From an uncultured Candidatus Peribacteria bacterium (lineage in GTDB: Bacteria; Patescibacteriota; Gracilibacteria; Absconditabacterales; Absconditicoccaceae), in contig CAZCTB010000065.1 in the NCBI GenBank assembly GCA_964501605.1, positions 1 to 55,948 of the forward strand: 55,948 nucleotides of DNA. The letters run 5' to 3'. Both the position numbers and the translations under genes were made by a program. The notes under the pieces are model-generated. The model saw only the letters and a program-made list of their open reading frames with translations, searched no databases and had not been told where the DNA came from. Shown piece by piece: positions 8,225 through 37,880 of the stretch (within the stretch, counting starts at the first letter, position 1; each line of letters opens with the position of its first letter).

Positions 8225-9904
8225 ATGGATCAGACAATAATAAATAATATACCAAATAAGCCATGAATATATCTTTTTAAAGACAAAAAAGACAATATTC
8301 TTTATATTTGAAAAGCAAAAAATCTCAAAAATAGAGTATCTCAATATTTCAATCCAAATTCAGTACGAAAACAAGATATGTTGAATAAGGCAGATACGGT
8401 AGATTTTTTTGTTGTAAAAACAGAATCTGAGGCTTTGTATTTGGAGGATAATTTAATTAAAAAAAACCAGCCACCATTCAACAATATGCTTAAAGGTTCA
8501 AATAGTTATGCTTATATAAAAATTACAAATGAAGATTTTCCACAAATATTTATCACTAGAAATAAAATCAAAGATTGATCAAAATATATTTGACCAAAAC
8601 ATAATACAATTGAACTCAAAAAATTCTTACAATATTTGAGATATATTATCAAACGAAGATGATGTAAAAAAACCCAATTTAATCAATGAAAAGTTTGTTC
8701 TGATTATCATTTTTGATTGTGTAATTGATGGTGTTTAGTTAATGCCCCGCTTATGAATGAGGGTCAGGGGGGGGCAAAAAAACTAAACCCACCTTCGCTA
8801 CGCTCTTCCTCCCTTCAAAAGGGAGGTACGTATGAAAGTGCGAAAAAAGAATATTCAGATATTATAAAACTAATAGAACAATTTTTCAGATGAAATACAA
8901 AACCAGTTGAAAAAGAGATAAAGCTCCAAATCCAAAAAGCGGTCAATGAAGAAAACTTTGAACGAGCGACTAGATTAAGAGATATTTATTTACAGATAGC
9001 AAATCTTACAGAAAAACAGACTGTAGTACTACCAAAGAGCATTTCATGATACATTTGCCAGATTAAAGAAATCTCAGGTTGGTTTGTTTATATTGTGTTA
9101 AATTTTTACGAATGAAAAATAATTGACGTAATTATCAACAAACAAAACAAAAATGATGGAGATGAAAATTCTGTACTATCGGTACTGGGTTCTGAGCTAT
9201 GAAATTTAGAAAAGATTGATTCAGATAATCATATTGTTTTAAAAAATCCAAAAGTTAAGTTAAACAAAACACAAACCAAAGAAATTTTATCTCTTATGGA
9301 TTGATTTATAGATTCGTATATTATCACACAATCATTTAAAGACGAAAATTTGTTAAATGATATTTTAAAAGACATTCAATCAAAATATAAGCTGAATAAT
9401 TTTCCATATCATATGGAGTGTGTAGATATTTCACATCTTTGATGATCACGAACTAGTGGTGGATTGTCATGATTTTTATGATGAATACCAAATTACAAGT
9501 TATATCGTAAATATAAAATTAATGCCAAAGCATCTAATGATTATGAGGCTTTGAAGGAAGTGATTACAAAAAGATTTAAAGACAAGGAAGACTTGCCAGA
9601 TTTATTTATTCTGGATTGATGAAAAGGTCAGTTGTGAATACTCAAAGATTTTTTACAAGAAAACTGGTTCAAAAAAATATTCGATAAAGTAGACTTTGTC
9701 TCTCTTGGTAAATGATCAGCTAGAAAAACATGATGAAAAATTAAATGAGAAAAAGAAAAAATATTCTATTTCGATTCAGAGATGAGAATTCAAAATATTG
9801 ATTTAAAATATGATCAATCAGATAAAACTATAGTAAAATTACGTGATGAAGCTCATAGATTTGCTAATTCTTACAGAAAAACTCAGATGAAGAAGTGACT
9901 ATAA
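8225..9904 (+). CDS. uvrC: Excinuclease ABC subunit C
   Basis: N-terminal GIY-YIG ([29 protein letters not shown]), UVR motif (ENFE.ATRLRDIY), and VDISHLGGS / LRDEAHRFANSYRK. Carries an in-frame GC-rich insert at 8744-8829. Confidence 0.9.
8744..8829. repeat. GC-run hairpin element inserted in frame in uvrC
   Basis: ccccgcttatgaatgagggtcaggggggggcaaaaaaactaaacccaccttcgctacgctcttcctcccttcaaaagggagg. Contains the hairpin CCTCCCTT-caaa-AGGGAGG. It is far more GC-rich than its flanks and interrupts the conserved C..G.C region. Confidence 0.75.
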
Positions 9905-9908
9905 TACT

Positions 9909-9975
9909 GTCATTCTGAGCGGAACAAGGTGAAGTCGAAGAATCTAGTGTTTGTATATACTATTTTAAAAACGCT
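9909..9975. repeat. GTCATTCTGAG-family element, left half only
   Basis: gtcattctgagcggaacaaggtgaagtcgaagaatctagtgtttgtatatacta matches the left arm and core of the 36726-36837 copy. No right arm is present. Confidence 0.75.
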
Positions 9976-10280
9976 ACCGCGGTAATGTTACTTTTGCCAC
10001 ATTGAGCCGCAAAAGTAACCAAAAAGTCCCTAGTTTAAAATTGCAGTCATACTTTAGTTTTGTAATATTGTGTACGAGTACGGAAAATTTCGCATAGGCT
10101 CAATTTTTAAATTATTATTATAATGTTTGTTGGGTAATTCTAATGAGCCTTACAAATGCAATCTTAAACTTTTAATTTGATACACCAAAAAGGTGTGATG
10201 TCAACACTTATCACTGTTTCGTGCGGTGGTTTTTTGATAATTCAAATTTTCTGAATATAATTAGATAGATTGATGATTTA

Positions 10281-11843
10281 GTGGTTAAAAAATCGATGAT
10301 ACAAAGAGAAAAATTTATAGCACTATTGATTGTATTGTTTGCATGGACTGCATTCCTTTTTAGTGATGCTATATTTTCTGCTAAAGAGGAAAATAAAAAC
10401 CCACCATCAAGTATTAAAAATTTAGTATTCGATACTTCACTTCAAAAGGGTGATACTTTAAATAATCATTCATCTGCTAGTGAGTTTGAATCACAAGTTG
10501 GAAAATTAGATACACAAAACGAATTGTCACAACTTACAAAAACAGTAAGTGAAAATTTAGAAAACTGAATAAATTCAGCAAAGATGAAAATAAAAGATAT
10601 AAATAATTGAATCAAGGATCTTGATTTGTTGGAAAAAATATATCAAAAAGACAAAAATCCAGATGTTCTCAAAATATTGTTACAAAATTTGGTAGAAGAG
10701 TATCAATTTGAAAAAGCAAAAACATATATATCAGATATAAATATATTTGATGACAAAATAATAGAAGCAAAAACATATATATATACTTATATTAATTCTC
10801 TATCTATAATAGACAACAATAGTATGGATAAATTTATGTCTTTTGTAGATCAAATGAGATACAAATCTTTAATTAGTTCAGATGACTATATTTTTTACCA
10901 ATGATTAGCCAAAATTTGGAAAAAAGATTATGAATGAGCAAGTATTTTATTCAAACAAATTAATTCACCAATATATACAAATTTTATATCACAAATAGAT
11001 AGTGCTATAGAAAAATTTAACAAACAAAAATGAGTACCTTGATATTATAAAGATTCTTTGATAGCCTTGACTGCTCTCAAAAATTGATATTTTTCTTTGG
11101 CTAACAAATTGGCTGTTAGTTCTGTATTGCAAAACTGAGAATATGTATTACCAAATCAGATATTGGCATATTCAAATTTTCTTACAAATAATCGAGAAAA
11201 ATCTATAGAAAATTTTTATGAATTAGTAGAGATAGATAGTGAAAATCAAGATAAGTATAATTTTTATATATGAGTATCTCACTATCGAGCAGGTCAATAT
11301 CAAGAATCTATTTGAATATTATCTAAACTTTTAAATAACTCTAAATATAAAACAGATTCTTATAGATATTTATTATTGAATTATAAAGCATTGGAAAATG
11401 AATCAAAAATGGTTCAAGTTCGACAGAAGTTATTATGACAAGACAATTTACAAGAGTCAGATTTTAAAACATACTATGATTATGTTTTTTATAGACCGTT
11501 TTCACAAGATTCAAAATATACAATTTATTCAAAACACAAACAACTTTCATATGATTTTGTAAGTATCTGTTATCAAGATTTTTGAGAAAAAAATGATACA
11601 TGTTTATATGGTGAGATTTGATTGGATGTAATAAATGAAAGTCGACATAGTGTCCAAAATTGACTACTTTATTTAGCAGAAAATTACCCACAATCACATA
11701 TATTTCAAGCATTATGAGATTATTACAAATCTCAAGGTTTAGATGATAAAGCAAAAACTTACTACTTAAAAGCAGTAAGTTTGAGTGACAATACTTCACA
11801 AAAAAATATAATTGAAAATAAAATTATTTCTGAGTTAGACTAA
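10281..11843 (+). CDS. Membrane-anchored helical-repeat (TPR-like) protein, hypothetical
   Basis: Two ORF pieces in one frame plus a TGA-joined remainder. N-terminal TM helix (FIALLIVLFAWTAFLF), then repeated Y/A/L-rich helical pairs. The GTG 10281 or ATG 10296 start is uncertain. Confidence 0.65.
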
Positions 11844-11853
11844 GCCGCGAGTT

Positions 11854-12663
11854 TTATATCTTTTCATTTTTTTCATTTTTTGTATCTAATTTTATTGCTT
11901 TAGTTTCTTCTCATTCTTTTGTGTTATTTGTTTTTTCTTTTTTATTGGATTTTTCTAATTCTTCTATATTTTTTTTTAATTCAATAATTTCTTCCTCTTT
12001 CTTTTTTAAATCATTGTCTCATTTTTTTGTGTCTTCCTCTTTCATTTTAATATTTTTCTTAGTTTCTTCTTTTTCAGATTTTTCTTTATCAATAGTTCTT
12101 TCTTCTTTTTTCTCATCATTTTTCTTTTCACTTTCTTTGCTATTTTCTTTTTCAGATTTTTCTTCTTTTGATATTTTTTTTATTTTTTTAGGTCATATAG
12201 ATTTTCATTTTTTAAACTGTAATTTTTCAAACCAATTATTTAATTTTAGTCATCTTGTATTTAAATGATTATAAGAAAAGTCAGATATTGGTTTTTTGGA
12301 AAAAACTCTACCAAAAGTTGATTTTCGTGCATTTTTTACAGTATTTACACCAGTATTCCATGTGTTTACTACACCATTTACTATAGGCTGTATCGTAGTT
12401 CTTACGGCTCATTCCAATGCAGTTCATCCTGCTATGATTGGACTTAGTGGTATATTCATTGCTTTATGATACCATTTACCATGGTTCCAAGCTCCCAGCA
12501 AAACATCTTTTACTCTTTTGGCTGTATCAGCAGCAATTTCGCATCACTCTTTTCACATTGTTTTTAAAGTAACAAACAAATCTGTAGCCGTTGTTACGGT
12601 TGTTCATCATAATCTAATTGGCATAGCGAGAGTATTTCAAGCTCTATTTATAGTATTTCACAT
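11854..12663 (-). CDS. Hypothetical protein with K/E-rich C-terminus (269 aa)
   Basis: Minus-strand ATG at 12663 to TAA at 11854, exactly 270 codons. The plus-strand F/S-rich ORF 11921-12268 is its antisense. Confidence 0.6.
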
Positions 12664-12745
12664 AATAAAAATTTAAATCTAAACACAACTATTATAAACA
12701 AAAAAAACAGATTGTCAAATTATTTAATATGTTATTTCACAAAAT

Positions 12746-12774
12746 TTGACAAATAAAAGTTTTTATACTATAAT
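12746..12774 (+). promoter_or_regulatory. Sigma-70-type promoter (TTGACA-17-TATAAT)
   Basis: ttgaca at 12746-12751, a 17-nt spacer, and tataat at 12769-12774. Nearly identical to the promoter at 17048. Confidence 0.7.
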
Positions 12775-12796
12775 ATATAAGAGAAATTTATTTATT

Positions 12797-13822
12797 ATGT
12801 ATTTTATAATGACTAATAAAGTAGCTGCAGACACATCAAAAGGCGTAAACAATTCTTCTAATAGTGAAGATAAGTTTTCGTTGTATCAATTGAAAAATAT
12901 GGATAACACAATAGAAAATAGATCTAAATTGTCTGAACATCCTGACGATGATTTAGAAAATATAAAAATGGAAGCTATAGATTCTGAAAATTATGAAGTT
13001 GCAGCAATTATTAGAGATACTTTGAATGACAAGAAAAATAAAATTCAAGAAGAAAATAATAAAGAATTCAAAGATAATCTAGAGACTAACAAAAAAGAAA
13101 ATAAAGAAGAGCAGCATAACGAGGTAGAAAAATTAAAAGCTCAACTTGAAGAAAAAGACAAAAAAATTGATTCTTTTGGTAAAAGATTAAAAGAAATAGA
13201 GGAAAAACTAGAAAAAAACAAATCTGAAAATACAGCAAAATTAGATGATTTATTGAAAGCAAAAAATTCTTGAGATACAGAAAAAGTAAAAAAACTTGAG
13301 GCAGAAATCAAAGAGCTTAAAGAAGATAAGGCGAATTGGAAAAAAGAAACTTTAAAATATCCAGGATGAGATTTAAGAACATTGAGAACTAAGCGAATTA
13401 AAGGATGAATTACATTCGATTCTTCTAAGACAGAAAAAGGAAGAAAATTAGAGATGAACCTAAATAAACTTTGATTAGTAAAAAATTTACGTTCTCGTAG
13501 AAAGCTAAATAAGACAATCAGAAAATTTAATGATATAGGTAATGATCCAAAAAAATGAATTATTTATATTATGTCCAAAGCAAACAAACGTCAATGATGA
13601 ATTGTTAGATCAGAGTTTAAAAAAATATGGAATACTTTAACTATTAGAGATGCAGACAAATTTGATGAAGTATTTAATAAGCAAAAAAAGAAATTTATTG
13701 ATGACTTGTTCGGCAAAATTTGAACTAATGCTGATACAAGAGATACAAAAATAAAAGAATCAATAACAAAAAGAATAGATTACTATCAAAAAGCTTATAA
13801 GAAAAAAATGATAACAGTTTAG
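12797..13822 (+). CDS. Coiled-coil hypothetical protein (341 aa)
   Basis: Frame continuous through TGA codons. E/K-rich heptad-like middle. The start was moved downstream of the promoter that the ORF track read as coding. Confidence 0.65.
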
Positions 13823-13874
13823 AAACGTTTCATTGTTGAAACGTTTAAACGCTTTATATTTAAATATTAAAAAA

Positions 13875-14159
13875 ATGAAAACACTAAAAGAGACAGTAGA
13901 CTATATACACAATTATATGACTGAATATGAAAAATGATGAGAAGTCATAGAAAAAGATGTATTATATGACATGATGGAAGAAGAATTGCTGGATACTGTA
14001 GAATGAGTTTTGACAGAAGAAGATATGAAAAATTGGGTGAATAGTAAAGATGATACATATTTGGACAAAATATTAAATGAAAGATTGGAAAATTATCCTG
14101 GTCTTTTGGAAGATATCAAAAACGATATTTTGAATGATTATGTTTTGGGTGAGGAATAG
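13875..14159 (+). CDS. Small acidic protein (94 aa)
   Basis: ATG to TAG, 95 codons with TGA as Gly. Similar in size and charge to the 21064-21372 product. Confidence 0.55.
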
Positions 14160-14180
14160 TTTTATTTATGTATAGCTGTT

Positions 14181-16862
14181 ATGATAAATTATGATTCTAC
14201 ATTAGATAAATTAAGAGATATTGATGGTAAGATAAATAATCTTAATAATTTAGATGAATTAAATAGTATAATATCTAGGAGAGTATGAGATTTATATTCA
14301 GTATTATCTAGTAATAACTTTTTTGTAAATGATGAAGTTTATAGGGAAATAGATAATTTAGAATCAAGGTTAAGTGTATGATGATCATTAGTTACGGAAG
14401 CTCAAACGGAGATATCAAGACTAGTAACAGAGAGAACAGCATTACCTACATGAGCAACATCAAACACAAGAAGAGCTGAGATATGAAGAGAAATTTGAAA
14501 GCTTTTACGTATTACATGATGAACAGAAGCTGCACCATGAGATTGATCTACAACCAGGATACAAGATAGACACAATGATTACAATAATATAAAAGTTGCT
14601 AAAGATAGTTTTAATATAAATAATACATTAACTGATTACAATCATACTTTATGAGTTGCTAGCACATATGCAAATTTAAATGCAGTAGGAAAATTTGCAT
14701 GCACACCAACAAATTGATTCCATTTTTTTGAAGATAATTGAAATAGAGTCAATGCATCTTCATGATCATATACATTTAAAATGAAATTAGATGACGGAAC
14801 TGAATGAGATGTAAAAGTAGAAGGTATATCTATAGTAGGTAATGATATACAAATAACAAATAATTTAAAATTTACACCATCAAATATTGATTATTCTAAA
14901 CCATTAGAAGTTATTATATGATGAGTATATGAAAATGTTGGTTGAAATTGAATAAATGTTATTCATACAAAAAAATTAAAAATAAATATAGATAATCCAG
15001 AATTCTTAGATGAAGAAGATGATCGTGAAGAAGAATTTGATAATTATAACAATTCTGGATCATGAAATAGGATATCTAATCACTTGTCTACTAGATACAG
15101 TTCTGATTTACATAAATTAGAAAGGAAGGCGCTGGAAAGTGCTATGAAAAACTGAGATTGACCAAAATATGATAAATTGACAGACGAACAAAAAGAACAA
15201 TTGTATCAACACATAAGAGGATTGCCGCATCCTTCTTTATGATGAAATTTTTTTGATACGTTAAATTCTTCTATGCATTTAGATAATTATGATTATTTTA
15301 AGTCTCGATTTACAGATGATGATAGAGATTGGAACAAAGACATTAAAAATATATCTTCAAAAAGAAAATACAATGATTTTATACATAATAATTTAGAATT
15401 AAAAAGTACTGAATATATAAGTACATCATTAGATGGGGCACTTACTAAATCTTTACCTATAAACAGATTTTTGAAATGAGAATTAACTAAGTTTTTAGAT
15501 AGAATAGATAGAAATAAACAAGACACTAATGTGCATAGTAGAATAGATTCAGATTTAGATAATGATGATCATAAGATGGATAAGTGACCGCGATCATTAT
15601 TGTATCCAAGAGATAAAAATTATATGAGATTTTTCTCAAATAAAACAATAAATTTGGAAAATCAAAAAGTTAAAATAAACACAAACACAGCGCCAGAAGA
15701 TTTAAATAATTTAGAACCAGTAAAATATAACTTACAATTGGATGTTAGTGGAAAAAATAGATTGAAAGCCACTATTAATATTGATTGAGAGAAAAAACCT
15801 ATTGTAATAAAAGCTTGAGATTCTTCATCTTTAGTTAGGAGAATAATGAAAAATTCCAGTATTTGTCAAGGTAAGGTAAGAGCTCACATAGGATTTAATG
15901 TATATAAGTCTATGATTCAAATGGCAAAAGACAGCGATATTAGCTTAAAATATCGTGATTCTTGAAATCATATAAATGAATTAGATATAGATGAAAAATG
16001 AAATATTGCATTATATGATATAGATGACTGGACTAATCGTGGTACAACAAATAAGAGATTAACTAATGTTGTTTTTGATCAGCAAATGTTTGAAAATACA
16101 AATGATTTTAATCAACCTTGATATAATTGAAGTTTAAGACAATGAATCGACGAATTATCTTATCATTTTAATTCTGCAATGAATGTAGTACATGATCAAT
16201 ATAGAAGCTGAATTAAAAGAAAATTTTTATGATTGATGAGTTCTCCTAGTAAGTCTAGGTTGCCAAGTTCTGTTTGGTTAAGTCCAATAAAAAAGCTTAT
16301 TAATATTCGTACAAATACTAATTTCGATTTTGATACAACAATTGATGTCTGAGGAAAAAGTATAAGTGTTTCATTTAAGAAAAACAAGTTTACCATAAAT
16401 ATGGATTGATTAAAAAAACCATTATCTGGTAAAGATTTAGGTAAATTACTGGAAAAAAGACAATGAAGAGTTAGAGTCTTTGATTGAATGGAAAGAGATA
16501 TAGTGGAGTGAGTTTATGTGTCTATGATAGAGAAACTTAGAACCAATTCAAAAATAGCTCGTAGTAATTTTTGAGTAATGGATGATGTTACACAAAATAT
16601 GTATATTTTAGATGATGATTGAAATTTTGGAATAATTTCTTCTGAAAAATTGGATACAGAATGAAATCCTATGCACAAAAAAATAAAAAAATGATATTGA
16701 GTTTTAAGTAAAGATAAAATTTCTCATATTTGATATGAAGTATTGGATGAAAAGGAGACAAAAGAACTTATGAAAAATCCATTTCTGATGCAAAGATTTG
16801 TAAAAGCCATGAATTCTAGAATGTGATTTTGAGAATCTATGAGAGCTTTATTTAATAAATAG
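14181..16862 (+). CDS. Large orphan protein (893 aa)
   Basis: I counted codons from 14181 into ORF pieces 15273 and 15600 in the same frame. No TAA/TAG until 16860. A terminator follows. Confidence 0.75.
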
Positions 16863-16882
16863 TTTTTTATAAAAATATCAAA

Positions 16883-16910
16883 AAATCCAACGATTTGCTT
16901 GGATTTTTTT
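16883..16910 (+). terminator. Rho-independent terminator
   Basis: AAATCCAA-cgatttgc-TTGGATTT plus a T-run. Confidence 0.7.
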
Positions 16911-17047
16911 AATTTTTTTGAATAGGCCAGGTATAAAAAATATTTTGCGATACAGAAAAAGTCTTCTAAAATTTGTAGATTTTTCTTTAAAAAGACGTTT
17001 TGTTAGTTTTTTGATAGAAATATGGATAAATTTTCATGTGTGAAAAT

Positions 17048-17076
17048 TTGACAAAAAAAGTTTTTTCGATTATAAT
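17048..17076 (+). promoter_or_regulatory. Sigma-70-type promoter (TTGACA-17-TATAAT)
   Basis: ttgaca at 17048-17053, a 17-nt spacer, and tataat at 17071-17076. Confidence 0.7.
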
Positions 17077-17121
17077 TATGATATAAATTTTAAATTGTAT
17101 TTTAATTATTATATTTTTCAA

Positions 17122-20100
17122 ATGTCTACTGGTAAATTTCAAATCCTTTCAAATCAAGAAAAAGTGAGATCTTCGTCTAATAATGTTTCTTGAGCCGAAT
17201 TTATAAAAAAAGCCAAAGAAGAACTTTTAGAATCCTTTAGCAAAACAAATGATATTGCTAATAGGAACAATTTATCTAAAAAACTTTCTGAAAAAATTTG
17301 AGATGAATGATATCCTAAATGATATGTTATGTTTTGAGGAAAAAGAGTTAGAATTGATTGAAAAAAGTTTCAATCTTTTAAAGCTTTGTATGATGAAGTA
17401 AATAAAGAGCAAGACGAGTCTATAAAAAACAAGAAGCTGGATGATTTAAATCGTGATTTTGCAGAAAGACTTATATTAGATTCTGGTAGTATGATAGAGT
17501 TTGGTTATGATGATAATTTTGAAGGAGGATTATCGGCAGAACAAGAAGCTAAAAAAACATTTGAAAAATTAAATAAATTAGATGATTACAAGGATAAAAT
17601 AGAGCGAGCAAAAAAAATACTTGGAGATGAAACACATTTTGTAGTAAAACGAACCGAAGAACAAATTAAAATATTTAAGGCTATGGAAAAGGTAGCTAAT
17701 GAAGAGTGAGTAGATGTTTCTAATGATAAAGGAATAGAGGAAAAAACAAAAGAAAACAATGAGAATATCCAGAAAATGGAAACATTTGACCCCAAGAATG
17801 AGTGGGGAAAGGAACATAGAGAAGGTAAAGACAAAAAAATATCTGAATTAAAAGAAAAATTAGAAAATGCTGAAGAAAAAAATGAAGAATTAAGAAAAAA
17901 AACTAAAGAATTAGAAAAAATTTTATGAAAAAATAAAAGATCAAACAAAGAATCTAAAGTAGAATCTTTGGAAAAGGTAAATTTGGAAAAATTGGTTAAT
18001 AGAGATAATTTGGCTGATGCTATATATAAGATTAGAGCTAATAATAAATATCCAGTGGGTTCTATAGAAATTAGATCTTGAATATTTTTGGATATAAGAA
18101 AAGAGCCACACTACAATGAATACAAGGAAAAATATATAGAAGCTAAAGGTAATGATGCTAGACTGAAGGATTTAGATACTGAACTTGCAGAACATATTAT
18201 ACTGGGTAATCCAAAAATGGTACCTAAAGATCAGCAATATTATATACAAATAAATAATGATAATAATAAAAAAACTGAAGAAGAGTTGGTTCAAGAATCT
18301 TTGAAATGCAGAGATTCTTTGATAAACCAATGATACAATGTTGAATATATGGTACACGAAGAAAAGTTAGAGATAAACATAAAAGAAAAGGAAAGAAAAG
18401 AAAGAGAACTTCAAGAAATGATTGAGGAAGAAAAAAGACAGCTTAAAAAAATAGAAGAATTAGAGTCTGAGTTAGATTCAAAAAGATTGTATGTAGATGA
18501 AAAAGATAGAGTAGCTAAACAAGAAGAATTAAGAAAATTAAAGATTAAGTTAGATTGACTACAAAGAGATATCTCTATCTTGTTAAAAGAAATTGAAGAA
18601 ATTACGAAACCATGAAAAAGACATCATATTATTAGACAAAAGAAACAAAAAGAATTAACTCCTTATGAAGAAGAGGATATTATACCAAAAAAAGCACTAG
18701 AAATGGATACTGTAATATCTGATATGTGAACAGATGTTCATAGAGAAAGGGTTTCATTGGAAACAGAAGAGGAGCTTAGAGATAGATACAAATGACTGGC
18801 TCGATATAATATACCTATGAGATGATATCTTTTCTTATCTAGATGAGCAAAAAGAAAAAGAATGATAAAACAAAAAATGAAAGCAATGGCAGGGAAAGCA
18901 TTTGCTTGAGACCAATGATTAAATGAAAAAACTGGAGATGCTTCGGATCGTCATGAGTTAGAAATGCAACATAAATTATCTGAAGTGAAAAAGGCTAATT
19001 CAGTTACACTACAAAATCCTTTGGTCAATAATTTATGTAAAGATTATTTAAATTGAATTGTAAATGATAGTAGTTTTCAAACACAATTTAATGCCATAGT
19101 AGATAATGACAGCAATATACAATCCATATTAAAATGACAAAAAATAACACATATATGAACAAATATATTATTGAAGTTAAAACAACAAAAAGCCAAAATG
19201 GATTTAATGAATAAAGTGGATACTGAATTAAATCAATATTTTGTAAACAATAATCAAGTTCATATCAACAATATAAATAAAGAAATAGAAAATTACATAA
19301 AGTTGTATCAAACAAATCCAGACTTTATGAAAGATTATCAAGATTTGATAAACAATGTTCCTTGATCAAGAAATAAATTACAATTGTATTTTCAACATCA
19401 AAAGGCCACTATGAAAATGCAAGTAGAAAATATAAAAATGAATATGAATATTTTGGTAAAATGAAAATCTGCTTATCAAATAGACAATAAAGATCGCCAA
19501 AAGTGACGGATGTATAAACTAGGAAATAAGTTAGATAAATTACCACGATGGGTGCAAACGGCTGGGTTTGTTTGAGTTTCTGTATGAACATGATTATTGA
19601 CTTGATGACTATGAACTTTTGCGGCAGCAGCAATTACTACTTGAGTGACAGCATCTTCTGTGTGAGCATTGAATGCAATCAAAAAACGAACACATCATAC
19701 CAAAGAACAAAATACTCATGAGAAAAATGTAGTAACTGATAATAAAAATGAACAAGCAAGAATAGCTGAACGACAAAATCAAGCATTAAATGGTAAATGG
19801 TACAAACGAAAAACATATAAAGCAAAAAGGCAATTAGCTCTTTATGATCAAACAACACAAGAGAATATTCAGATAGCAAATACAATTAGTGATGCTATTA
19901 CTGATTTGTCGTCAAAAATAGGTACATTGGATGCTAAAGAAGATAATTATATGAAAAAAAATCTAATAGAATGACGAGCTCGTTTCAAATATTATAGAGA
20001 AACTGGACACAATTTCTTGGCATCAAATGAAAAAGAACAAATAGAAAAAGATATGAAAAGATTGGAGAAATCTTTGATATTGTGATCAGGTAAGTTATGA

Positions 20101-21015: not shown

Positions 21016-21063
21016 AAATATATCTATTATAATAAAGATTTTATAAAATAAATATATAAAAAA

Positions 21064-21372: not shown

Positions 21373-21396
21373 TAATTAAATATATTATAAAACATA

Positions 21397-22212: not shown

Positions 22213-22240
22213 TAAACAGCCGCTTTATTGTTTTTTAATC

Positions 22241-22318
22241 ACCCCAACCCCTCTTTGAGAAAGAGGGGCTTGCAAATAGATTGTTTCCCCTCTTTATCAA
22301 AGAGGGGACTAAGGGATG
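22241..22318. repeat. Twin GC-run hairpins (CCCCTCTTT-N3-AAAGAGGGG) x2, intergenic
   Basis: cccctctttgagaaagagggg and cccctctttatcaaagagggg lie about 30 nt apart between rlmE and ychF. Confidence 0.8.
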
Positions 22319-22350
22319 ATTATATCAAATTTTATAAAATAAAATAATCT

Positions 22351-28334: not shown

Positions 28335-28552
28335 TACAATATTTAAATTAATACTTAAAATATATTTTTTACAATATTTTCTTATAAGAAAATAAGAAAA
28401 TAAAGCAAGAAATAAAAATCAAATATATAACAACAAAAGCTTATTATATAGGATTTAATGTTGTTATTTCAATTTGCTTTTCTATCAAACATTGTTATAT
28501 AAAAGTATGATGAATGTTTTGTTGAAAATTTAAATATTGTATACTCAAATAA

Positions 28553-29071
28553 ATGAAAAGATTAAAAACAAACGCTATGATATTTGTGGTAGCAGTACTA
28601 TTGTCTATAGTGCTTTTTTATACAAGTAAAAATCCGGATCTATTTTCTGCAAGTATTCTTTCATTGCAAGATGCAGAAACTATCAAAGCAAAAAGCCGAG
28701 ATGTATGATACAAAAACGAATGAAATATATTAGATACATTTTTGTCAGACAAACTTCAAAATATCAGTAATATAACTTTTTCAATTATATATGATCAAGA
28801 CAACACGAATTTAAAGTTAGAAAAATTTGATTGCCAAACAAATTATGAAATATTATCAAGTGAAGAAGGTTCAATTGTAATTAAATTTACAAATTTTTCT
28901 GGTATAGATTATGATTATCAGCAAAGCTTGTTTGAACTACCTTTCAACTGACAGATGTCTAAGGTTTTGATTAGTGAAGGTATGGCAAATTTATTCAATT
29001 GAGAAAATAAAAATTTATCAATTTGATTATTAAATAGTGATGATGTAGATTATCACCAAACTTTTAATTAA
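28553..29071 (+). CDS. Hypothetical secreted or membrane-anchored protein (172 aa)
   Basis: N-terminal hydrophobic anchor (AMIFVVAVLLSIVLF). ORF piece 28742 is in frame. Confidence 0.55.
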
Positions 29072-29084
29072 GAAATATTAAAAA

Positions 29085-30701
29085 ATGAAAAAGCTTTACC
29101 CAAGGTTTTTATTAAGATTATCTTTGTTTTTTGCTTTATTTATTTGATTCACATTTGCAGAAGACCCAGATGCTTTTTTGGTTCAAGTAGAACCAAGTAG
29201 TTTTGGTGTTTCTGAATCTATAGATGTTACAATTAGCGCAGTTAAGAGTTGAATAATAGTAAAGGATTATATATGAGATGTATTTATAGAAGTAGAATGA
29301 TTAATGCCAGATGATTATGTTGTACCTAGTGATGGCTTGTATTCTTTTCTTATACAAGATCAATGAATAAAGTTATTTTCAAAATGATTAGAAATAAAAA
29401 AACCTGGTACATACAATCTTAAAGTATCAGATATTATAGATGAAACAGTTATGTGAGAGACTACGGTTATCGTTGGTAACGCATGATGAAACTCAAATTT
29501 AAAAGAAGTTGATATAACATCACCAACTGATGGTAGCACAGAAAGGAGTTCTGCAACCAATATTATTTGATCTAGTTCAAATTTACCAAATTCTCCAGTA
29601 GAAATATATTTGAACAACGAATCAGTAGCTAATTGACACACCGATTCTCAATGAAATTTTAATGTTTATATTCAGTGATTACAAGAATGACAAAATCAAA
29701 TACAAGCTAAAATTACAGATATCAGTGATATTGTTTTGTGAGAATCTGATGTTATTGTTTTAAATTATGAATCATTTTCCGATGGTATATACAATTCAAT
29801 AGAAATTTTACCATCCAATAATATAAAACAGTGAGACAAGGTCTCCTTCAACATTTATACTTCAGAAGAAGTTACTTCTTGAGAGTTGGAGTTTAGCGAC
29901 AATCAAAAATTTCCTTTAGATAGATTGTCTCCTTGAGTATTTAATAAAGATGTGGTTTTGACTTCACAGGGTAGTATAGATATTTCTTTGTCTCTTGTTG
30001 TTGATGGTAATAGTGAATATTATGAAGATGTAGCAAATATATTTGTTCAACAAAATGATTCCATATCAAATATTAGATTCCACTCTGTATGAGTAGATGG
30101 TACTTCTGTAAATGTTTCTTGGGATCCTATTTGAGATGCTCCAAAATATAGAATATCTTATGGTACAGATAGAAATAGTTTACAAAAAACTGTAGATGTA
30201 AACTCTACACAAGTTTTAGTAGAAAATATACAATCAAACACTGTTTACTATTTTCAGATATTACCACTAGATGAATGACTTCATGCTTCTTGAGAGCCAT
30301 CAGAAGTGGTTGAATATAACCCAAAAGAAGTTTATTCTTCTTGTGTTGTGAAATGAATTATAGTTACATCAGAAAAAATAGGAGATAAATATTATCTCAC
30401 GCGAGATGATGTTGAAAATGTTACAAAATATGAAGTATACAAATCAGAGCGAGAAGATATGTCTGATATGAAAAAAGTATGAGAGACAACAGAAACTAGG
30501 TTTGAATATAATTTTAATAAATATGCTGAAAGTGATCAATATGCTTATTATCAAGTTGAGGCTATATGTTCAGATTGATCAAGTGTAACAATAGATGAGG
30601 CAAAAGAAGTTAAAGTATGACCATTTGAAAATACTTTATTAGTTATAATTATAGCTTTTTTCTTTTATAGTATATATAGGCTTTACAAAACAGCAGATTA
30701 A
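29085..30701 (+). CDS. Cell-surface protein with Ig-like and fibronectin type III-like repeats and a C-terminal TM anchor
   Basis: Signal peptide (LSLFFALFIGFTFA), beta-rich repeats, two FN3-like units (SVNVSWDPIGDAPKYRISYG; YYLT-[CGA]-DDVENVTKYEVYKSE), and a C-terminal LLVIIIAFFFYSIY. Confidence 0.72.
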
Positions 30702-30738
30702 AAAATTATAAATTTATCTTATAGTATTATTTTTTATT

Positions 30739-33636
30739 ATGAATAAATTCCCTAAAAAATATAATTATCAAAACACAAAATTAATAAAAGAAAATTGAAA
30801 TAAATGGAAAAACATTGATTCTACACTATTTCCAGCTGATAAAAAATTACATCCTGGTTGTATATTTTCTTTGTACTATCAAGATTTGTTTAAAGAACTA
30901 TATAATTTACAAAATAAGTATTTTAATCCAAACTTATCTTTTTGACTTTCTTCAGATTTTTATTCTAAATTAAATAATCCAAATATTAATTTGAAACACA
31001 TTGAATCTCAGGTTTTTGGTCAAATTAAACAAAACAAAAAATTTGTAAATAAGCTTTGACTTTGATTCAACTTAGATTGAGATATGTTCGTTTATTCAGA
31101 AAAATTTAATCGTTATATAAGAAAGGTTTTTGTTGAACTTTATAATAAATGATCTATTTCTCTTAAAAAAGAAACAATTAATCGAAGTAAGGATTATCAA
31201 ACAAACTTATTCAAAAATAATATAAATGTTAAAGAACAAAAAACAAAAGAATATATATTAAAATATTTCATAGATTCAAAAGGACATGCATTAACTGTCC
31301 CCACAACTAATCTAGAAACTATATTTGCAGATGTTTGAGTAGCTGTAAACCCACAAGATAAAAGATACAAGAAATTAATATGACAAAGTGTGATTGTCCC
31401 CATAACAAATAAAATTATACCAATAATTTGAGATGAGAGTATTGATTCATTTAAATGATCTTGAGTTTTTAGAATAACGCCTGGTCATGATCAGTATTGA
31501 TTAGAGCTTGCACAAAAACATAATTTACCCACAAATATATATGCTATAGATGTTCATGGTAAATTTACAAAAAACGCATGAGAATTTGCTTGAAAGTCTG
31601 TGGAAGATTTTTTTGATAATATAGTAAAATACATAGATGATATATGAAATTTAGAGTCTAAAAACAACGTTTTAGTAAAACAAAATTTTGATGTACGTAC
31701 ATGAGAGAAGTTAGATAGTATCACATTGGATCAGCGAAGTATTAATTATTCTTATTCTTTAGATTATCTTTTACAAAAATTTTCAGATCAAAGAATATCT
31801 TGTTTACCATTAGATTCACAAGAAAATATAATATCTTTATTGGAAGAAAAAAAATCAGTAAATATTTCTAATAAGTCCACAAAATGAGTTTTAGTTCCTA
31901 TAGTAAACTCACACAAATGAGAAACTTTCCCAATAAATGACGATATAGTTCTAGATAGATACAAGATTTCAAAAACAAAAAGAACTTTAACTCTAACTTT
32001 GATTATATTAAATTTGATTTTAGACAATCATTTATCTTGCTCTTTTACTATTGAAGAACTAATTGACGCTCTTTTTTCTGTGGATTTATCTTGAAAAAAA
32101 ACAAAAATAGAAAGATATATAGACATATATAAAACTGAATCAAAGATCAAAACAGAATATAAAAAATGATTAAAGGAAATAGAAAAATTGGTGTGAAAAC
32201 TAAAAAAAGATAGTGAAAATATCAAAATAATTTTAGATTTATTAAAAAATTCTTTTGCTATAAAACTTGATTGAAATAATATCTATTTAGATTTTTCATC
32301 TATATTTGCCAAAAGAGATATATTAGAGCTACAAAGAGAGGATGGGTTTAACAAATCATTTATAGATAGTGTGCGATTTTTGTACAAAAATAATTTATCA
32401 AAAGATTTTTGATCTTATGAAAATATAAAAAATAAAAAATGATTATTTTTTACATGATTAGATGAAAAAGATTTTGTTTTAAATACAATGCTTTTATCGT
32501 TGGAATATTCAAAAAATTTATTATTTTCTTCATTGTTTTTTCATCCTATATTGATTGATATAAATCAAAAAAAGATAGTAAATAATAATTCTAGATTTTT
32601 GATAAAAGATTTTTGAGAAAATCTTAGCATATATTGACCAGATGTTATGAGGCTAGTTCTATTATTGTGAGAAAAAGAATTAAATAACACAAAATTTGAT
32701 ACATATACAGCACAACAATATAGCAATTTGTTAAATAAAATTTGGAATGCATATAGGTATGTTTATAAAAAACATATAGAATGAAAAAAAGAAATTAATA
32801 TAAAAAAAATAATAAAAAAAATAAAATTTGATATTACAAGCTATGATCTTCGAATAATACATGATATAAAGACATTAATAGATGATTTTGAATATCAGTT
32901 CTGAGAAAACAAAATTTTACCACTTTGAAAAAAGGTTATTAATTTTATAAAAGAAAATCTTTGTGATAAATATTTAGAATCTACAAAACTATATTCAGAC
33001 AACAACACTCCAGAAGTTATGATGTTGTCATTTGCCATTTTACTAAAGCTTGCAAAACCATATATTCCTTTTTTTATATCTCATTTAGAGTCTATATTGA
33101 AGATAAACCGAGAAGGTTATGATGTTTTTGAATTTAAAAACTTTGAATTAAAAGAAAAAAATTATAAAATAAATTTGTTAATGGATATAGTAGATAAACT
33201 AAAGAACATAAAATTAAAAATCTGATTAAAAAAGCATCAACATATAGACATATTTGTACAGGCTAATCCTGATTTTTTGGATTTTTTAATACAGAATGAA
33301 GATTTATTAAAATCACTTGTTAAAATATGAGATATTAGATGTGTTAGATTACATGAGGATGTACCAAGTTGATATCAAATAGACAATGTGATAAATATAA
33401 ATATATGAGCAAAAAGAATTTCAGAACAAATAGAAATAAAAAAAGATATTTTGTTAGATTTAAAAGAAGAGTATGAAAACAAAAAAGAACATATACAACA
33501 TCTAAAGTCTTTAATGGCATCTATTTCTCAATCAGGTAATGAAGATGCTTTATCTCAAAAGAAAAAAGAGATACAAAACTTACAAAAAGAAATAGATGAT
33601 TTGGATTTTGAAATTAGTAAGCTTAAAGCAAAGTAA
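30739..33636 (+). CDS. Valyl-tRNA synthetase homologue with degenerate HIGH/KMSKS signatures (965 aa)
   Basis: ValRS editing-domain block: [64 protein letters not shown]. DQ-[CGA]-S matches QWF. Has the C-terminal coiled coil typical of ValRS. All triplets scanned, no TAA/TAG. Confidence 0.75.
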
Positions 33637-33658
33637 AAATCATAGTTTTATTTTTATT

Positions 33659-33755
33659 GGTAACGAAGAATCTAGTTCTTTGATATATTATATTTCTATA
33701 TATAATAGATTCTTCGCAGGCCTGTCTATAACGGACTGACAGGTTTAGAATGATA
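33659..33755. repeat. GTCATTCTGAG-family element, divergent full-length copy
   Basis: Core cgaagaatctag...tagattcttcgcagg shared with the 36726 and 9909 copies. The right arm (ttagaatgata) is interrupted by the hairpin cctgtc-tataacggac-tgacagg. Confidence 0.7.
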
Positions 33756-33783
33756 ATTTAATAGTTAAGTTCTTAATATAAAA

Positions 33784-33816
33784 ACCCCACTCTCTTGGAA
33801 TGGGGCCATATTTTTT
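33784..33816. terminator. Bidirectional terminator hairpin
   Basis: CCCCA-ctctcttggaa-TGGGG with T-runs on both strands, between convergent genes. Confidence 0.6.
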
Positions 33817-33848
33817 AGTTTTTGTTGGCTAGATTAATATATTTTTAA

Positions 33849-34748
33849 TTATTCACTAGCTTTTAAATTTTCTATTTCTTCTATAAATTTTTCTGGAGGA
33901 TAAGCACCTGGTATAAGTACAAATTTACCAGTCACTTTATCTATTATTACATTACCTGGAGTACCTGAAACATTAAATAATTGTCTTCCTTCATTAGATT
34001 GACTATTTACTTCTTCAGTGTATCTTCCTTCTTCAATACATTCTTTCATATCTTTTTTATTTAATCAAACTTCATCTGCAATATCTAGTAATGAGTCTAC
34101 GTCTATATTACCTTCGTATGCAAAGGTTTCTTCAATAAGATTGAAATATTCTTTTTTTGTACCCAACTCTCATGCACAAACAATTCATTCTCATAATTTT
34201 GCAGCTGCACCGTGTACAATAAAATTTCTAAAAACAGCATTCACTTCTGTAGGATATTCTTCCAATACTGAATTTATAGTACCTTGATCAGATTGTGTTT
34301 TACAGTAGGGACACAAGAATTCTGAGTATTCTAAAATAGTAAATCTAGCGTTTTCATCACCATGTATTGGTGTTGAGGCTTTTATTTCTTCCAATTTTAC
34401 TATCAAGTCATTATTTTTTTCTCAATCTTCTAACGGTATATCATCATTTTCATTTTCTTCCAATATTTCTACATCTCACAAAGGATCTTGATCTGTGTTT
34501 TCATTCATTTCCATTTCTGCCATATTAATCTGAGCTAATGCTTGATCAATAGCAGCACCTTGTTGTTCTTTGTAAGAATCAGAATTGTAAAGTTCTTTTA
34601 CTAATTCCATATTTTCTACACCACCAACTTTTATTGTTTCCAAATACAAAGCACTATCTTTTTTGAAAAAAGAAAGTAAATTTAGAATCAACATTATCAA
34701 TAATATTGCAATTACTGCAATATAATAGTTTTTTTTGTTTTCTATCAT
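33849..34748 (-). CDS. DsbA-family thiol:disulfide oxidoreductase with N-terminal membrane anchor
   Basis: Three ORF pieces in one frame; both junctions checked and contain TGA only. FTILEYSEFLCPYCKTQ (CxxC), VSGTPGNVII, and the TM helix YYIAVIAILLIMLILNLL. Confidence 0.85.
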
Positions 34749-34778
34749 TTCTTTAAATAATTATTAATTAAAATTTTA

Positions 34779-35147
34779 TTATTGTGCTATAAATTGTTGT
34801 ATAGCAGCAGTTTGTTGTTCCTTATAAACATCTGATTCATAAAGATCCATTACTTTTTCAAAATTTTCTTGTCATCCAACTTTCATTTTTTCTAATTCTA
34901 ATGCAGAACCTTGTTTTGTAAAGTTTAATATACCAAAAACTAGGTTTAACAACAACAATACAACAAAGATAATTGTCATTATAGACATACAATTTTTTCA
35001 TTTTTTTGTTTTTTTTGTTTCTACAATTACATTTTTTTTAGGACTTGTAGTTTTTTTAGTAGCAACACTTTTTGTTGCTGTTTTTTTCTTTGCTACTGGT
35101 TTTTTAGTATTAGTAGCAGTTTTTTTTGTGGTTTTTTTTACTGGCAT
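34779..35147 (-). CDS. Small membrane protein (122 aa) paralogous to the N-terminal module of the DsbA-like gene
   Basis: K/T-rich N-terminus, a TM helix, then LELEKMKVGGQENFEKVMDLYESDVYKEQQTAAIQQFIAQ, compared with YLETIKVGGVENMELVKELYNSDSYKEQQGAAIDQALAQ in the neighbour. Confidence 0.6.
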
Positions 35148-35311
35148 AATGAAATTTTAAAAAATATAAAATTTATTTACATACTAACTTATATAATTAA
35201 CAATTTATATATATAAATCAAACAAATCTTGTTTTATGTATGGTGTTTTTGTTTGACAAAACAAATAAAAACAAACAAACCACTTAGCTAAAATAGATAT
35301 AATTATATAGT

Positions 35312-36640
35312 TTATTTTTTGACAAAAAGTTCACTAAATTTTGTTTTATTATTTTTATACAATCTACTTAAATATCCAGACAATAAACCAAATGGTATAA
35401 AAAATAAATAATTTACCATACTATCCTCAAATACATGTAGAAATAGTCCAATGAATAGTAATAAACTTCGTCACATATATAATCTTTGCCAATGTAATAA
35501 TGCCATTTCTTCTTCTGCAGATCTATTTCATTTGTCAAATTCTAATTTGATATTTTTAAATATTAATAATATTTGAAATATTACTATTGCCCAAATTATA
35601 AATCATACTGTACCAATATCTAACATTATTTGCATAAAATAATTTTCTGGCAACATGTTTCATTCATGATGTATTGCAGGTCATGATGTTCATAATCAAT
35701 GTCATAGTGGGTTGTTTATTATTTCTCAAATATATCATAATTTAGCAGTTACATGTCCTATTGTGGATTCATATTTCAATAAACTCAGTCAGATTATTCA
35801 CAATATTAATCAAACTAATATTCATACAGAAATTTTCTTATTTTTTTTAATTCGATTTTTTGTTAACAATACAAATATCAAAACCATACCAATTATAGCT
35901 GCTCTAGATAGAGTAAGCGCAATTGCAAGTATTCGCAATAATACAAACAAAATATTTAAGTTTTTGAAAGGATTTTTAATTATGTTTGTAATTTTTTTTA
36001 TTCAATTTCATCGCCATAAAAGTATTAATGGTAAAAATGCTACTAATAAATATCCATAATTGTTTGGTCCAGAAAATAATCATTGCCATCTAGTTGTTCA
36101 TTCAAATCCTGTTAGATAGTAAATTGGAGGATTAGCTCCAAAATAAAAATCATCAAATTTTCCATATCCTATGTTCATAAATATTTCTGGTTTTATTATT
36201 TTCATAATTTGCCAAAGAAAACCAAACAATACAATTCATATCAAAAAATACTGAAACCAGTTTATTTGTTTCTTGTTTAGCTTTTTCAATCATACAAATC
36301 ATACAAAACTTGCAGTCAAAAATATTAGCAAATAGAAAAATCAATATTTTATACCTATCATCATGTTGCTAATAGATTGTCATGCTAGCAAAGATATTCA
36401 TAAAGAAAATAGTATTAATACCACAAATCGTATTCGTACATTTTTCCATTTTTTCAAACAATCTTTTACTTTTTTTAAGTTTCATACAAAAGCTGCCAAC
36501 ACAAAAATCAGCCACAACAAATCTCTTATCAAAGATATAATTATTTGTGATTCTCATCAAAGTATTCCATATCACACTACAGTTACGATTATATGATAGA
36601 GTGCTATTAGTCACAAAAATCCTCACAAAAACTTTTGCAT
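35312..36640 (-). CDS. O-antigen ligase / Wzy_C-family polytopic membrane protein
   Basis: GLFSGPNNYGYLLVAFLPLIL, LTLSRAAIIGMVL, GHGLGTSGPA and ENYFMQIMLDIGTVGFI. I scanned all 443 codons and found no TAA/TAG. The ORF-track pieces in this region are off-frame artefacts. Confidence 0.82.
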
Positions 36641-36725
36641 ATAACTTGCTTGAAAAAGATATAAAAACAAATATAACAATTTTATATATACTATGTTATA
36701 ATGTACAGTTTTAAATTGCATCTGT

Positions 36726-36837
36726 GTCATTGCGAGTTGACTGTCATTCTGAGTGGAACGTAGTGGAATCGAAGAATCTAGTGTTTTGATATACTACGTT
36801 TCTATTTGTAATGGATTCTTCGCAGGCTCAGAATGAC
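36726..36837. repeat. GTCATTCTGAG-family palindromic element, full-length copy (MITE-like)
   Basis: gtcattgcgag..gtcattctgagtggaacgtagtggaatcgaagaatctagtg....ggattcttcgcaggctcagaatgac. Terminal inverted repeats lie in a divergent promoter region. Confidence 0.85.
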
Positions 36838-36914
36838 CCTAGCATTGTTGTCTGGTTTTGTACAGCACAGTGACAATTACAATTAGCATATTATTATTCT
36901 CACAAAAAAAAACA

Positions 36915-37880
36915 ATGAAAAATAAATTGACAGTCATTATAGCAACTAGACCAAATATTCAAAATATTAAATGAATATTTCATTCTTTGGATATTCAGAC
37001 TTTTCAATATTTTAAAGTAATACTTTTGATAGATACAAAACTCCAAAAAGAGGAGTTTGAAAATCTTAAAAAAGAAGCTCTAAAATGATTAAAAAACATT
37101 TCAAAAAAAATCAAATTTGTGTCCAATGTAAATACAGATTTCAAACCACAAAACTGAGTAAGTTATGTTAGAAATTATGGTATCAAATTAGCTGACACAG
37201 ATTTTATAAACCTTTTTGATGATGATGAATTGTTTGATTCAGATTATCTACAGACATCTTTTGATCTTTGGCATGAAATTAAAGGTTGAAAAACCCCCCT
37301 TAAAAAGGGGGGTAGGGGGGGTTGATTTATTCTGGTTCCCACGCTTATGTTTAGAAAAACTTGAGAAATACAAAGCCAATGATTCGACTATTATAATTTT
37401 TGGACATCTAGACCACATGCTTTGTGGCTCAAAGAAAATCAAAAATTATCACAAATCCAAATGTATTCTTGAAACTCTCTTTTTGGTCCGACAAAAATAT
37501 TTCAAGAAGTTTTATTCGATAAAAATCTTGATTTTGTCTATGAAGATTTGGAATTTACATACAGAATATACAAAGCATGATATCCTATTTTTGTCACAAG
37601 TGAATTACTGTTGTACCACATGGAAAGAGATAAAACATTATTAGAACATGCCCGAGTTTGATCTAAATTTGCAGCATATAGAAAAGCAAAGCATAGAATA
37701 TTGTTTGTTAGAAAAAATTGAACATTATTACAAAAAATAAAATTTTATTTACTTGGATTTCGAGCTCAACCTCTTCGACTAAGTTTCAAAATTATTCGTT
37801 ATTGAAAAAAAAGAGAGATATTACCTCTCATATTTTCTTTGTATCATGGGACTTGGGATGGGTTGATTTGTAAAAAATAA
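36915..37880 (+). CDS. Family 2 glycosyltransferase with an in-frame GC-run insert
   Basis: LTVIIATRPN, FINLFDDDE, FGPTKIFQEVLFDKNLDFVYEDLEFTYRIYKAGYPIF. Frame verified codon by codon across 37200-37440. The 142-aa standard-code ORF 37216-37644 is in the wrong frame. Confidence 0.82.
37293..37322. repeat. GC-run hairpin element in frame in the GT2 gene
   Basis: accccccttaaaaaggggggtagggggggt, read as TPLKKGGRGG. Followed by cccacgcttatg, which resembles ccccgcttatg at the uvrC insert. Confidence 0.7.

Follow-up and report, generated by a model that had tools for sequence, protein, structure and literature searches.

Candidate dispersed repeats of the intrastrand-triplex type in coding linkers of an SR1 bacterium

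We analyzed a stretch of 55,948 nucleotides from an uncultured Candidatus Peribacteria bacterium (assembly GCA_964501605.1, contig CAZCTB010000065.1, positions 1 to 55,948 of the forward strand; hereafter "the window"), which carries short hairpins with C and G runs in the uvrC gene, in a gene for a family 2 glycosyltransferase (GT2), and in an intergenic spacer at about 22.2 kb. Its nearest named relatives belong to the Absconditabacterales (candidate division SR1, Absconditicoccaceae). An earlier reading made from the letters alone (the sequence-only reading) had judged the genome AT-rich by eye, and the window indeed has 23–31% GC. Long open reading frames (ORFs) are almost absent under translation table 11, and are restored once TGA is read through. 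The TGA codons in uvrC coincide with conserved Gly residues of correctly translated SR1/Gracilibacteria orthologues; therefore, the genome uses code 25 (TGA = Gly). The frames of uvrC and GT2 are kept across the hairpins, as had been proposed, but only under this code. The conserved domains expected in frame are also present: in UvrC, Pfam recognizes GIY-YIG (residues 13–83), UVR (230–253) and the UvrC RNase H domain (386–547), so that the insert is flanked by recognized domains on both sides (GIY-YIG on one, UVR and RNase H-like on the other), and GT2 has its glycosyltransferase domain.

Hairpin units in the window

The C-run/G-run hairpins that the sequence-only reading had placed at three loci, including twin copies in the spacer, were all found where it had put them. 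G or C runs of at least 5 nt in the 56-kb window are confined to uvrC, GT2 and the intergenic repeat loci. The window contains four hairpins that are intact and whose 5' arm is purely pyrimidine, against a mean of 0.2 and a maximum of 1 in 30 Markov shuffles; beyond these, a fifth, decayed copy lies in a TPR-protein gene. The GC content of the inserts is at least about 60%, compared with 27% for the genome. The DNA fold z-scores of the intact copies range from -4.5 to -7.9 (all fold energies and z-scores are from ViennaRNA and describe Watson-Crick hairpins only).

Every copy consists of a pyrimidine (Y) arm, a 3-nt loop, a complementary purine (R) arm, and a G-rich third arm that mirrors the R arm (Table 1). 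The consensus is CCYCYCTT for the Y arm, with CCTCCCTT, CCCCCCTT or CCCCTCTTT among the copies, and AAGRGRGG for the R arm. The third arm appears as a G run beside the hairpin, or as a C-rich box when read on the other strand; in both cases it is a mirror repeat of the R arm, occurs on one side only, and is set off from the R arm by a short loop or by a small hairpin between the two. The units are arranged as a head-to-head dimer around an A-rich centre in uvrC, as a tail-to-tail dimer in the spacer, and as a single unit in GT2.

Table 1. Host genes and repeat units in the window (Y, pyrimidine arm; R, purine arm).
Feature	Positions	Strand	Description
uvrC	8225-9904	+	559 aa under code 25; host of dimeric element
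uvrC left unit, decayed	8745-8774	+	Y arm CCCCGCTT 8745-8752, loop ATG; R arm AATGAGGG 8756-8763, loop TCA; third arm G8 8767-8774
A-rich centre of uvrC dimer	8775-8784		CAAAAAAACT
uvrC right unit, long form	8785-8826	-	box AAACCCACC 8785-8793 (third arm GGTGGGTTT on minus strand); 14-nt linker 8794-8807; hairpin CCTCCCTT-caa-AAGGGAGG 8808-8826
Decayed unit in TPR-protein gene (10296-11843)	10397-10450	-	AAACCCACC ... CTTCAAAAGGG; Pfam TPR repeats
Intergenic unit 1	22237-22268	-	box AATCACCCC 22237-22245 (third arm GGGGTGATT on minus strand), AA, hairpin CCCCTCTTT-gag-AAAGAGGGG 22248-22268
Intergenic unit 2	22286-22321	+	hairpin TCCCCTCTTT-atc-AAAGAGGGGA 22286-22308, that is (T)CCCCTCTTT-atc-AAAGAGGGG(A); loop CTAA; third arm GGGATGATT 22313-22321
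GT2 glycosyltransferase gene	36915-37880	+	321 aa under code 25; Pfam Glycos_transf_2; hosts single unit
GT2 unit, short form	37293-37323	+	Y arm ACCCCCCTT 37293-37301, loop AAA, R arm AAGGGGGG 37305-37312, loop TAG, third arm GGGGGGTT 37316-37323; read as TPLKKGGRGGG

The uvrC element had been located at 8744-8829; the locus stands, and the repeat proper is slightly shorter at both ends. Its left unit has decayed in the window, but the orthologue L004 (84% identical) retains the whole unit, CCCCCATT-atg-AAGGGGGG-tca-GGGGGGTT, with 8/8 mirror positions. The centre, of the form GGGGGTTCAAAAAAA(A)CAAAACCCACC, also occurs in intergenic composites of other contigs (e.g. L183 and L193). On the minus strand the right unit reads CCTCCCTT-ttg-AAGGGAGG-(14 nt)-GGTGGGTT, in which GGTGGGTT mirrors AAGGGAGG at 8/8 positions under a G.GC / T.AT rule; its 19-mer hairpin and box recur at other loci. 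The predicted peptide of the uvrC insert includes NPPSLRSSSLQKGG. In GT2, positions 37293-37313 can also be written as the hairpin ACCCCCCTT-aaa-AAGGGGGGT, with a G7 run behind it at 37315-37321, and the third arm mirrors the R arm at 8/8 positions. The decayed unit of the TPR gene has an intact, in-frame counterpart at the orthologous site of L001 (12110-12178), which reads AAACCCACC-hairpin-CCTCCCTT-caa-AAGGGAGG.

One detail of the sequence-only reading did not survive, namely a word cccNcgcttatg said to be shared by uvrC and GT2 next to the G run. The two copies have no exact word of this kind in common, and the pattern matches once, at 37338-37349. The GT2 stretch encodes VPTLMF, which is conserved in orthologues without the insert, while the uvrC stretch, CCCCGCTT-ATG, corresponds to the left unit's first arm and loop in decayed form; L004 has CCCCCATT-ATG there. 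The resemblance is coincidental.

On their G-rich strands, the two spacer units read CCCCTCTTT-ctc-AAAGAGGGG-tt-GGGGTGATT and CCCCTCTTT-atc-AAAGAGGGG-actaa-GGGATGATT. The third arm of unit 1 mirrors AAAGAGGGG at 9/9 positions (G.GC, A/T.AT rule), and that of unit 2 mirrors its R arm at 8/9; unit 1 is comparable to AAACCCACCCCAA-CCCTCCCTT-aaa-AAGGGAGGG in L082. Together the two units fold as a single long palindrome (-26.9 kcal/mol, z = -7.9).

The mirror relation holds well beyond the window. Over 335 non-redundant pyrimidine-arm hairpins from all fetched loci, the flanking box matches only as a mirror repeat in 106 and only as a direct repeat in 11 (81 versus 3 for the CCTCCC core, 25 versus 8 for other cores). 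The box also covaries with the arm, CCTTCCC going with CCC(T/A)TCC and CCCCTC with C(A/T)CCCC. In complete composites, each second loop forms a small perfect hairpin of its own, with a different sequence in each copy; the intact composite of L001 folds as five consecutive hairpins (z = -6.7). Three other structural roles for the box were considered and set aside. It does not pair with the purine arm in Watson-Crick fashion, as an attenuator segment would, since it is a mirror repeat and not a complement. A pyrimidine-motif triplex is disfavoured by the frequent A in the box (CCCACC), whose opposite strand, GGTGGG, fits the purine motif with T.AT. The AAAGAGGGG units do not fit a G-quadruplex or i-motif switch.

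The structures could instead act as RNA, as terminators, attenuators or mRNA stabilizers. Their hairpins are stable, some plain copies in other genomes (L009, L017, L020) consist of an A run, a hairpin and a T run, like bidirectional terminators, and the reverse complement of the GT2 unit is followed by TTTTT. However, with respect to their host genes the units point either way (uvrC dimer, GT2, ComEC), a terminator inside uvrC would be harmful, and the related PIT elements have neither promoter nor terminator activity (PMC4666352). The intergenic pair has no T tails, and a terminator role was rejected for it. We regard an RNA role as very unlikely.

Empty sites, filled sites and dispersed copies

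Comparison with orthologues lacking the insert, which the sequence-only reading had suggested, revealed empty sites for both proteins. The UvrC linker between the Cys motif (C-x-G-x-C) and AKKEY has 35 aa in the window and 10 aa in the closest empty-site orthologue. The insertion had been put at about 29 codons; that it is one is borne out, and the net gain is about 25. Among 36 UvrC orthologues sampled, the linker is short (12 aa or fewer) in 18, such as P0004 (CNGWC-SKKIHSNKLQ-AKKEY) and P0006, which is likewise empty, and carries inserts of several kinds in the other 18. The insert of the window is common to P0002 (84% identical), and P0003 and P0005 have a variant (VPLKKGE...SLIKGG). At the DNA level, the uvrC site is filled in the window, L004 and L003, and empty in L001 and L002. 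The GT2 site is empty in P0122 (L007) and P0125-P0127; P0121 and P0124 have the short insert, and P0123 (L005) a full dimer. The GT2 insert would indeed be read in frame as proposed, with one more Gly, and adds only about 8 codons.

Near-identical copies lie elsewhere. L001, whose uvrC site is empty, has one copy downstream of topA (3322-3440) besides the in-frame copy in its TPR gene. The corresponding topA-downstream spacer of the window (2977-3023) has a short tandem repeat, (CAATTTT)n, where L001 holds the full composite. An exact-word scan of metagenome contigs identified complete composites in about 25 AT-rich contigs, in which the copies are mostly intergenic. The same composite is in frame in an IF-2B family gene, read as VPLMKGDQGGFKEQNPPVSLRSTTSLQKGG, and another in-frame copy lies in the opposite orientation inside a ComEC gene. 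In-gene copies are read as loops rich in Pro, Leu, Lys and Gly. Because orthologues have empty sites and near-identical copies occur in other genes and spacers, the loci are dispersed-repeat insertions kept in frame within length-variable linkers, as judged from sequence comparison. This agrees with the earlier proposal of one family of tolerated in-frame insertions with intergenic relatives. Old copies, such as that in the TPR gene, decay into ordinary coding sequence.

The inserts could also be ordinary lineage-specific protein loops, or assembly artefacts, given that linker length varies in all lineages. Ordinary loops would not account for the match at the DNA level to copies in spacers and in other genes (19-mer, box and A-rich centre), nor for a GC content so far above that of the genome. 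The inserts recur in separate, independent ENA and JGI assemblies, which excludes an assembly artefact. This explanation is highly improbable.

A different repeat ("first family") occupies both sites in other lineages. It is found at the place of the hairpin insert in UvrC of P0007, P0010, P0011, P0032 and P0055, and at the GT2 site in P0150, P0181, P0190 and P0196. In these SR1 lineages it is in frame at the same linker sites (peptides ..SSLHSEWQ, VILSE..), and it is sometimes nested with the hairpin unit (P0196). In the window, first-family repeats (ACTGTCATTCTGAGCGGAAC...GAAGAATCTAGTG) lie at 9906-9962, 33655-33721 and 36740-36827, just after the uvrC stop and upstream of GT2. In other lineages, the UvrC alignment has three or more additional insertion hot spots (window aa ~430, ~452 and ~500), after YRKYKI, before LPDLFILDGGKGQ and after GKGxARK, with repeat-like peptides in, e.g., P0004, P0029, P0044, P0055, P0075 and P0104.

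We then compared divergence inside and outside the inserts. Between the window and L004, the 28 uvrC insert codons have proportions of synonymous and non-synonymous differences (pS and pN) of 0.09 and 0.10, against 0.51-0.56 and 0.05-0.08 in the rest of uvrC. This suggests that the inserted peptide is unconstrained and evolves neutrally (a ratio of non-synonymous to synonymous change of about 1). The right uvrC unit is identical at 41/42 positions and the decayed left unit at 24/30; the GT2 unit is identical to that of L006 at 29/31, with 86/100 and 82/100 in its flanks. Pooled, intact units are identical at 70/73 positions versus 342/400 in coding flanks (p = 0.013). The signal is genuine but weak, and is only suggestive of a DNA motif that is kept or re-homogenized while the peptide is free to change.

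The same alignments bear on phase variation, which had been raised as a possible consequence of the homopolymer runs, and under which slippage would make uvrC and GT2 contingency genes and the elements would be kept for that reason. There is a G8 run inside uvrC and C6, G6 and G7 runs inside GT2, and runs this long are slippage-prone in other bacteria. Among relatives, however, the runs differ by substitution and not by insertion or deletion (G8C versus G6TTC in uvrC, G7 versus G6A in GT2), the recovered orthologues are all in frame, and units also occur in intergenic and decayed form. The proposal found no support in this comparison of relatives, and we consider it quite unlikely.

Interpretation and spread of the repeats

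The reading that we favour, with a probability of roughly 0.75, is that the loci are short dispersed DNA repeats of a non-coding type, belonging to the intrastrand-triplex class and residing in coding linkers of SR1 bacteria in the manner of Rickettsia palindromic elements (RPEs). The insertions would be translated passengers. Selection would remove copies that are out of frame or in structured regions, and this filter would result in shared insertion "hot spots". The repeat may spread by copy-and-paste of a folded single-stranded intermediate. As for the route, we tentatively prefer that the structure itself causes replication stalls or breaks and that ectopic, gene-conversion-like copying takes place while these are repaired; such copying would also re-homogenize the copies.

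Several points weigh against this reading. Translation of the inserts is suggested solely by frame conservation. The second loop of the right uvrC unit has 14 nt, and in many copies that loop holds a hairpin, in both cases beyond the loop sizes at which triplex formation was shown; and the E. coli TM_ECO triplexes were undetected by in vivo footprinting (PMC4666352). The low synonymous divergence comes from few sites, uvrC 9737-9820 is equally identical, and recombination tracts could explain the low divergence of the uvrC insert. No transposase or RAYT (REP-associated tyrosine transposase) gene was found in the part of the window's ORFs that was scanned. Alignment of filled against empty sites gave no definable target-site duplication or clean junction, the flanks in the uvrC linker and the L001 spacer being replaced or diverged.

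For the spreading step only, the units could be elements of the REPIN or MITE type (REP doublets and miniature inverted-repeat transposable elements, respectively), moved in trans by an HUH Y1/RAYT or IS200/IS605-like TnpA enzyme encoded elsewhere that recognizes the hairpin and flanking box in single-stranded DNA. The inverted-dimer architecture, the near-identical copies at many loci, the many copies in one metagenome (PDWI01 contigs), and the presence of the module across phyla and viral contigs, which suggests horizontal spread, are all consistent with this. On the other hand, none of the 10 window proteins scanned is such an enzyme, the GTAG/CGTC head is absent from the listed copies, no target-site duplication was found, and BoxC/TM elements are reported without transposon association (PMC4666352). 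We consider mobilization in trans possible but doubtful.

The repeats are not limited to SR1. Scans using nothing but the stem word identified the module, consisting of the box, an optional covarying hairpin and CCTCCCTT-N3-AAGGGAGG, in Oscillospiraceae, Gastranaerophilales, Dehalococcoidia, an uncultured Rickettsiales bin, Patescibacteria and others, and also in IMG/VR viral contigs. The box lies on one side of the stem in 97/136 genome matches. The ORF context of copies in GC-rich viral contigs was too noisy and was not used. In the uncultured Rickettsiales bin (E06__bin57, ~30% GC; L075, L108 and L121), there are several box-hairpin-CCTCCCTT/AAGGGAGG modules, with hairpins of the CCCTTCACAGGGGGG type arrayed in tandem behind them. 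Scanned against Rfam at gathering thresholds, the window and 10 copy-bearing loci gave no matches other than tRNAs and an unrelated RAGATH-28. Literature searches on palindromic repeats of SR1/Gracilibacteria and on the literal sequence words returned nothing relevant, and one on triplexes led to Holder 2015.

A bolder reading, which we think unlikely, is that of a selfish module defined by its structure (a hairpin and mirror arm with the capacity to form an intrastrand triplex), present in more than 10 phyla and in phage contigs, with a long form that earlier searches did not cover and that bears a covarying second-loop hairpin. Within essential SR1 genes, uvrC among them, its nucleotide sequence would be actively preserved through break repair or gene conversion that the structure triggers repeatedly, and certain protein linkers would be heritable hot spots where one repeat family replaces another.

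In code-25 genomes, such inserts both inflate and fragment gene calls, and create spurious similarity between unrelated proteins through "PLKKGG / SLQKGG" peptides.

The window has other notable features. A diversity-generating retroelement lies at 38093-40867, with a reverse transcriptase (39449-40666, minus strand) and a bAvd-like accessory gene (39091-39429, minus strand). Its variable repeat (38870-38967) is the 3' end of a gene at 38093-38974 on the plus strand, and its template repeat lies at 40770-40867; 15/16 mismatches between them are at template adenines. In a tRNA cluster at 46339-46930, ARAGORN and Rfam call only tRNA-Ser and tRNA-Met; uncalled GC-rich, tRNA-like pieces (46458-46507 and 46868-46906) have odd 9-nt anticodon-like loops, and an 81-aa GIY-YIG ORF (46537-46782) lies between them, abutting tRNA-Met. 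Near the end of the window, a RhuM-family virulence-type protein (53579-54589) and a DUF3892 protein (55018-55302) possibly mark a mobile or defence island.

Comparison with known repeat systems

The units resemble repetitive extragenic palindromic (REP) sequences, bacterial interspersed mosaic elements (BIMEs) and REPINs in being short, non-autonomous hairpins in alternating orientation, with dimers that fold as one long hairpin. They differ in the missing GTAG/CGTC head of the listed copies, which start with AAYCCC..., and in that their stem-plus-box sequence recurs across phyla, while REPs are extragenic and species-specific. No RAYT/Y1 transposase is among the 10 window proteins scanned. 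MITEs are marked by terminal inverted repeats together with target-site duplications; the dimers here end in inverted hairpins, and a target-site duplication was not definable, with flanks diverged or replaced.

The GC clusters of yeast mitochondria are mobile, GC-rich palindromes that are optional between strains; the genome around them is very AT-rich, and the coding gene var1 tolerates them in frame. Our repeats share with them the GC-rich palindromes in an AT-rich genome and the in-frame tolerance, although the clusters belong to a eukaryotic organelle, their sequences are unrelated, and we know of no mirror-repeat third arm described for them.

RPEs are short palindromic repeats of a reduced, AT-rich genome, a substantial share of which lie within unrelated housekeeping genes without shifting the frame and supply additional peptides at the protein surface (Ogata et al. 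2000, reviewed in PMC10969869). Here too, a dispersed palindromic repeat is found in frame in unrelated genes and is missing from orthologues. Compared by description only, RPEs are longer (~100-150 bp) and have no G/C run or mirror repeat, whereas our units have ~30-45 nt, are mostly intergenic, and occur in another taxon. So far, most documented in-frame "selfish DNA in genes" comes from Rickettsia; should a genome-wide survey bear out our findings, SR1/Absconditabacteria would provide a second clear example of core-protein remodelling driven by repeats, here with defined non-B-DNA potential.

The closest structural match is the class II purine-motif intrastrand triplex, defined with BoxC, PIT and TM_ECO elements, including inverted pairs (Holder 2015, PMC4666352). 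The TM_ECO/BoxC consensus is CCCTCNCCC-N3-6-GGGNGAGGG-N3-GGGNGAGGG, with G.GC, A.AT or T.AT triads. TM_ECO elements are multi-copy, often in inverted pairs, linked to local instability and not on mobile elements; they form triplexes in vitro, not detected by in vivo footprinting, and are always intergenic in E. coli MG1655 (PMC4666352). Our units share with this class the C-rich arm, short loop, G-rich arm, 3-nt loop and mirroring second G-rich arm on one strand. They are likewise multi-copy, dispersed and often in inverted pairs, with variable loops and conserved stems, have no known linked transposase, and are associated with local sequence turnover. From the arm pattern (8/8 in GT2, 8/8 in the right uvrC unit, 9/9 and 8/9 in the spacer, 8/8 in the left unit of L004), the loci carry the architecture of a class II potential intrastrand triplex of the BoxC/PIT/TM type, the folding itself being predicted. 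Purine-motif triads would also explain the A/T dimorphism of the box, since CCCACC gives T.AT and CCCTCC gives A.AT. The ITxF search allows stems of 8-15 nt, at most 1 mismatch and loops of 1-6 nt (PMC4666352); the GT2 unit (loops of 3 and 3 nt) and the spacer units (3 and 2; 3 and 4-5) fall within these limits, while the right uvrC unit and many long-form copies with a hairpin loop exceed them.

The differences lie in sequence, host and location. The stems are of the CCYCYCTT/AAGRGRGG type with terminal T.AT or A.AT triads, not CCCTCNCCC/GGGNGAGGG, and these repeats are a different sequence family of the TM_ECO/BoxC structural class. Their host is an AT-rich, code-25 bacterium of the candidate phyla radiation and not a proteobacterium. 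The long form, with a 14-nt linker or covarying hairpin as second loop, goes beyond the ITxF loops, and the module is also found in viral contigs. In contrast to the strictly intergenic TM_ECO, copies are in frame in uvrC, GT2, TPR, IF-2B and ComEC genes. BoxC/PIT/TM repeats have so far been thought purely intergenic, with their origin unexplained; our results would link them to the literature on selfish DNA within genes, and the long-form module across phyla would widen the known range of triplex-type repeats.

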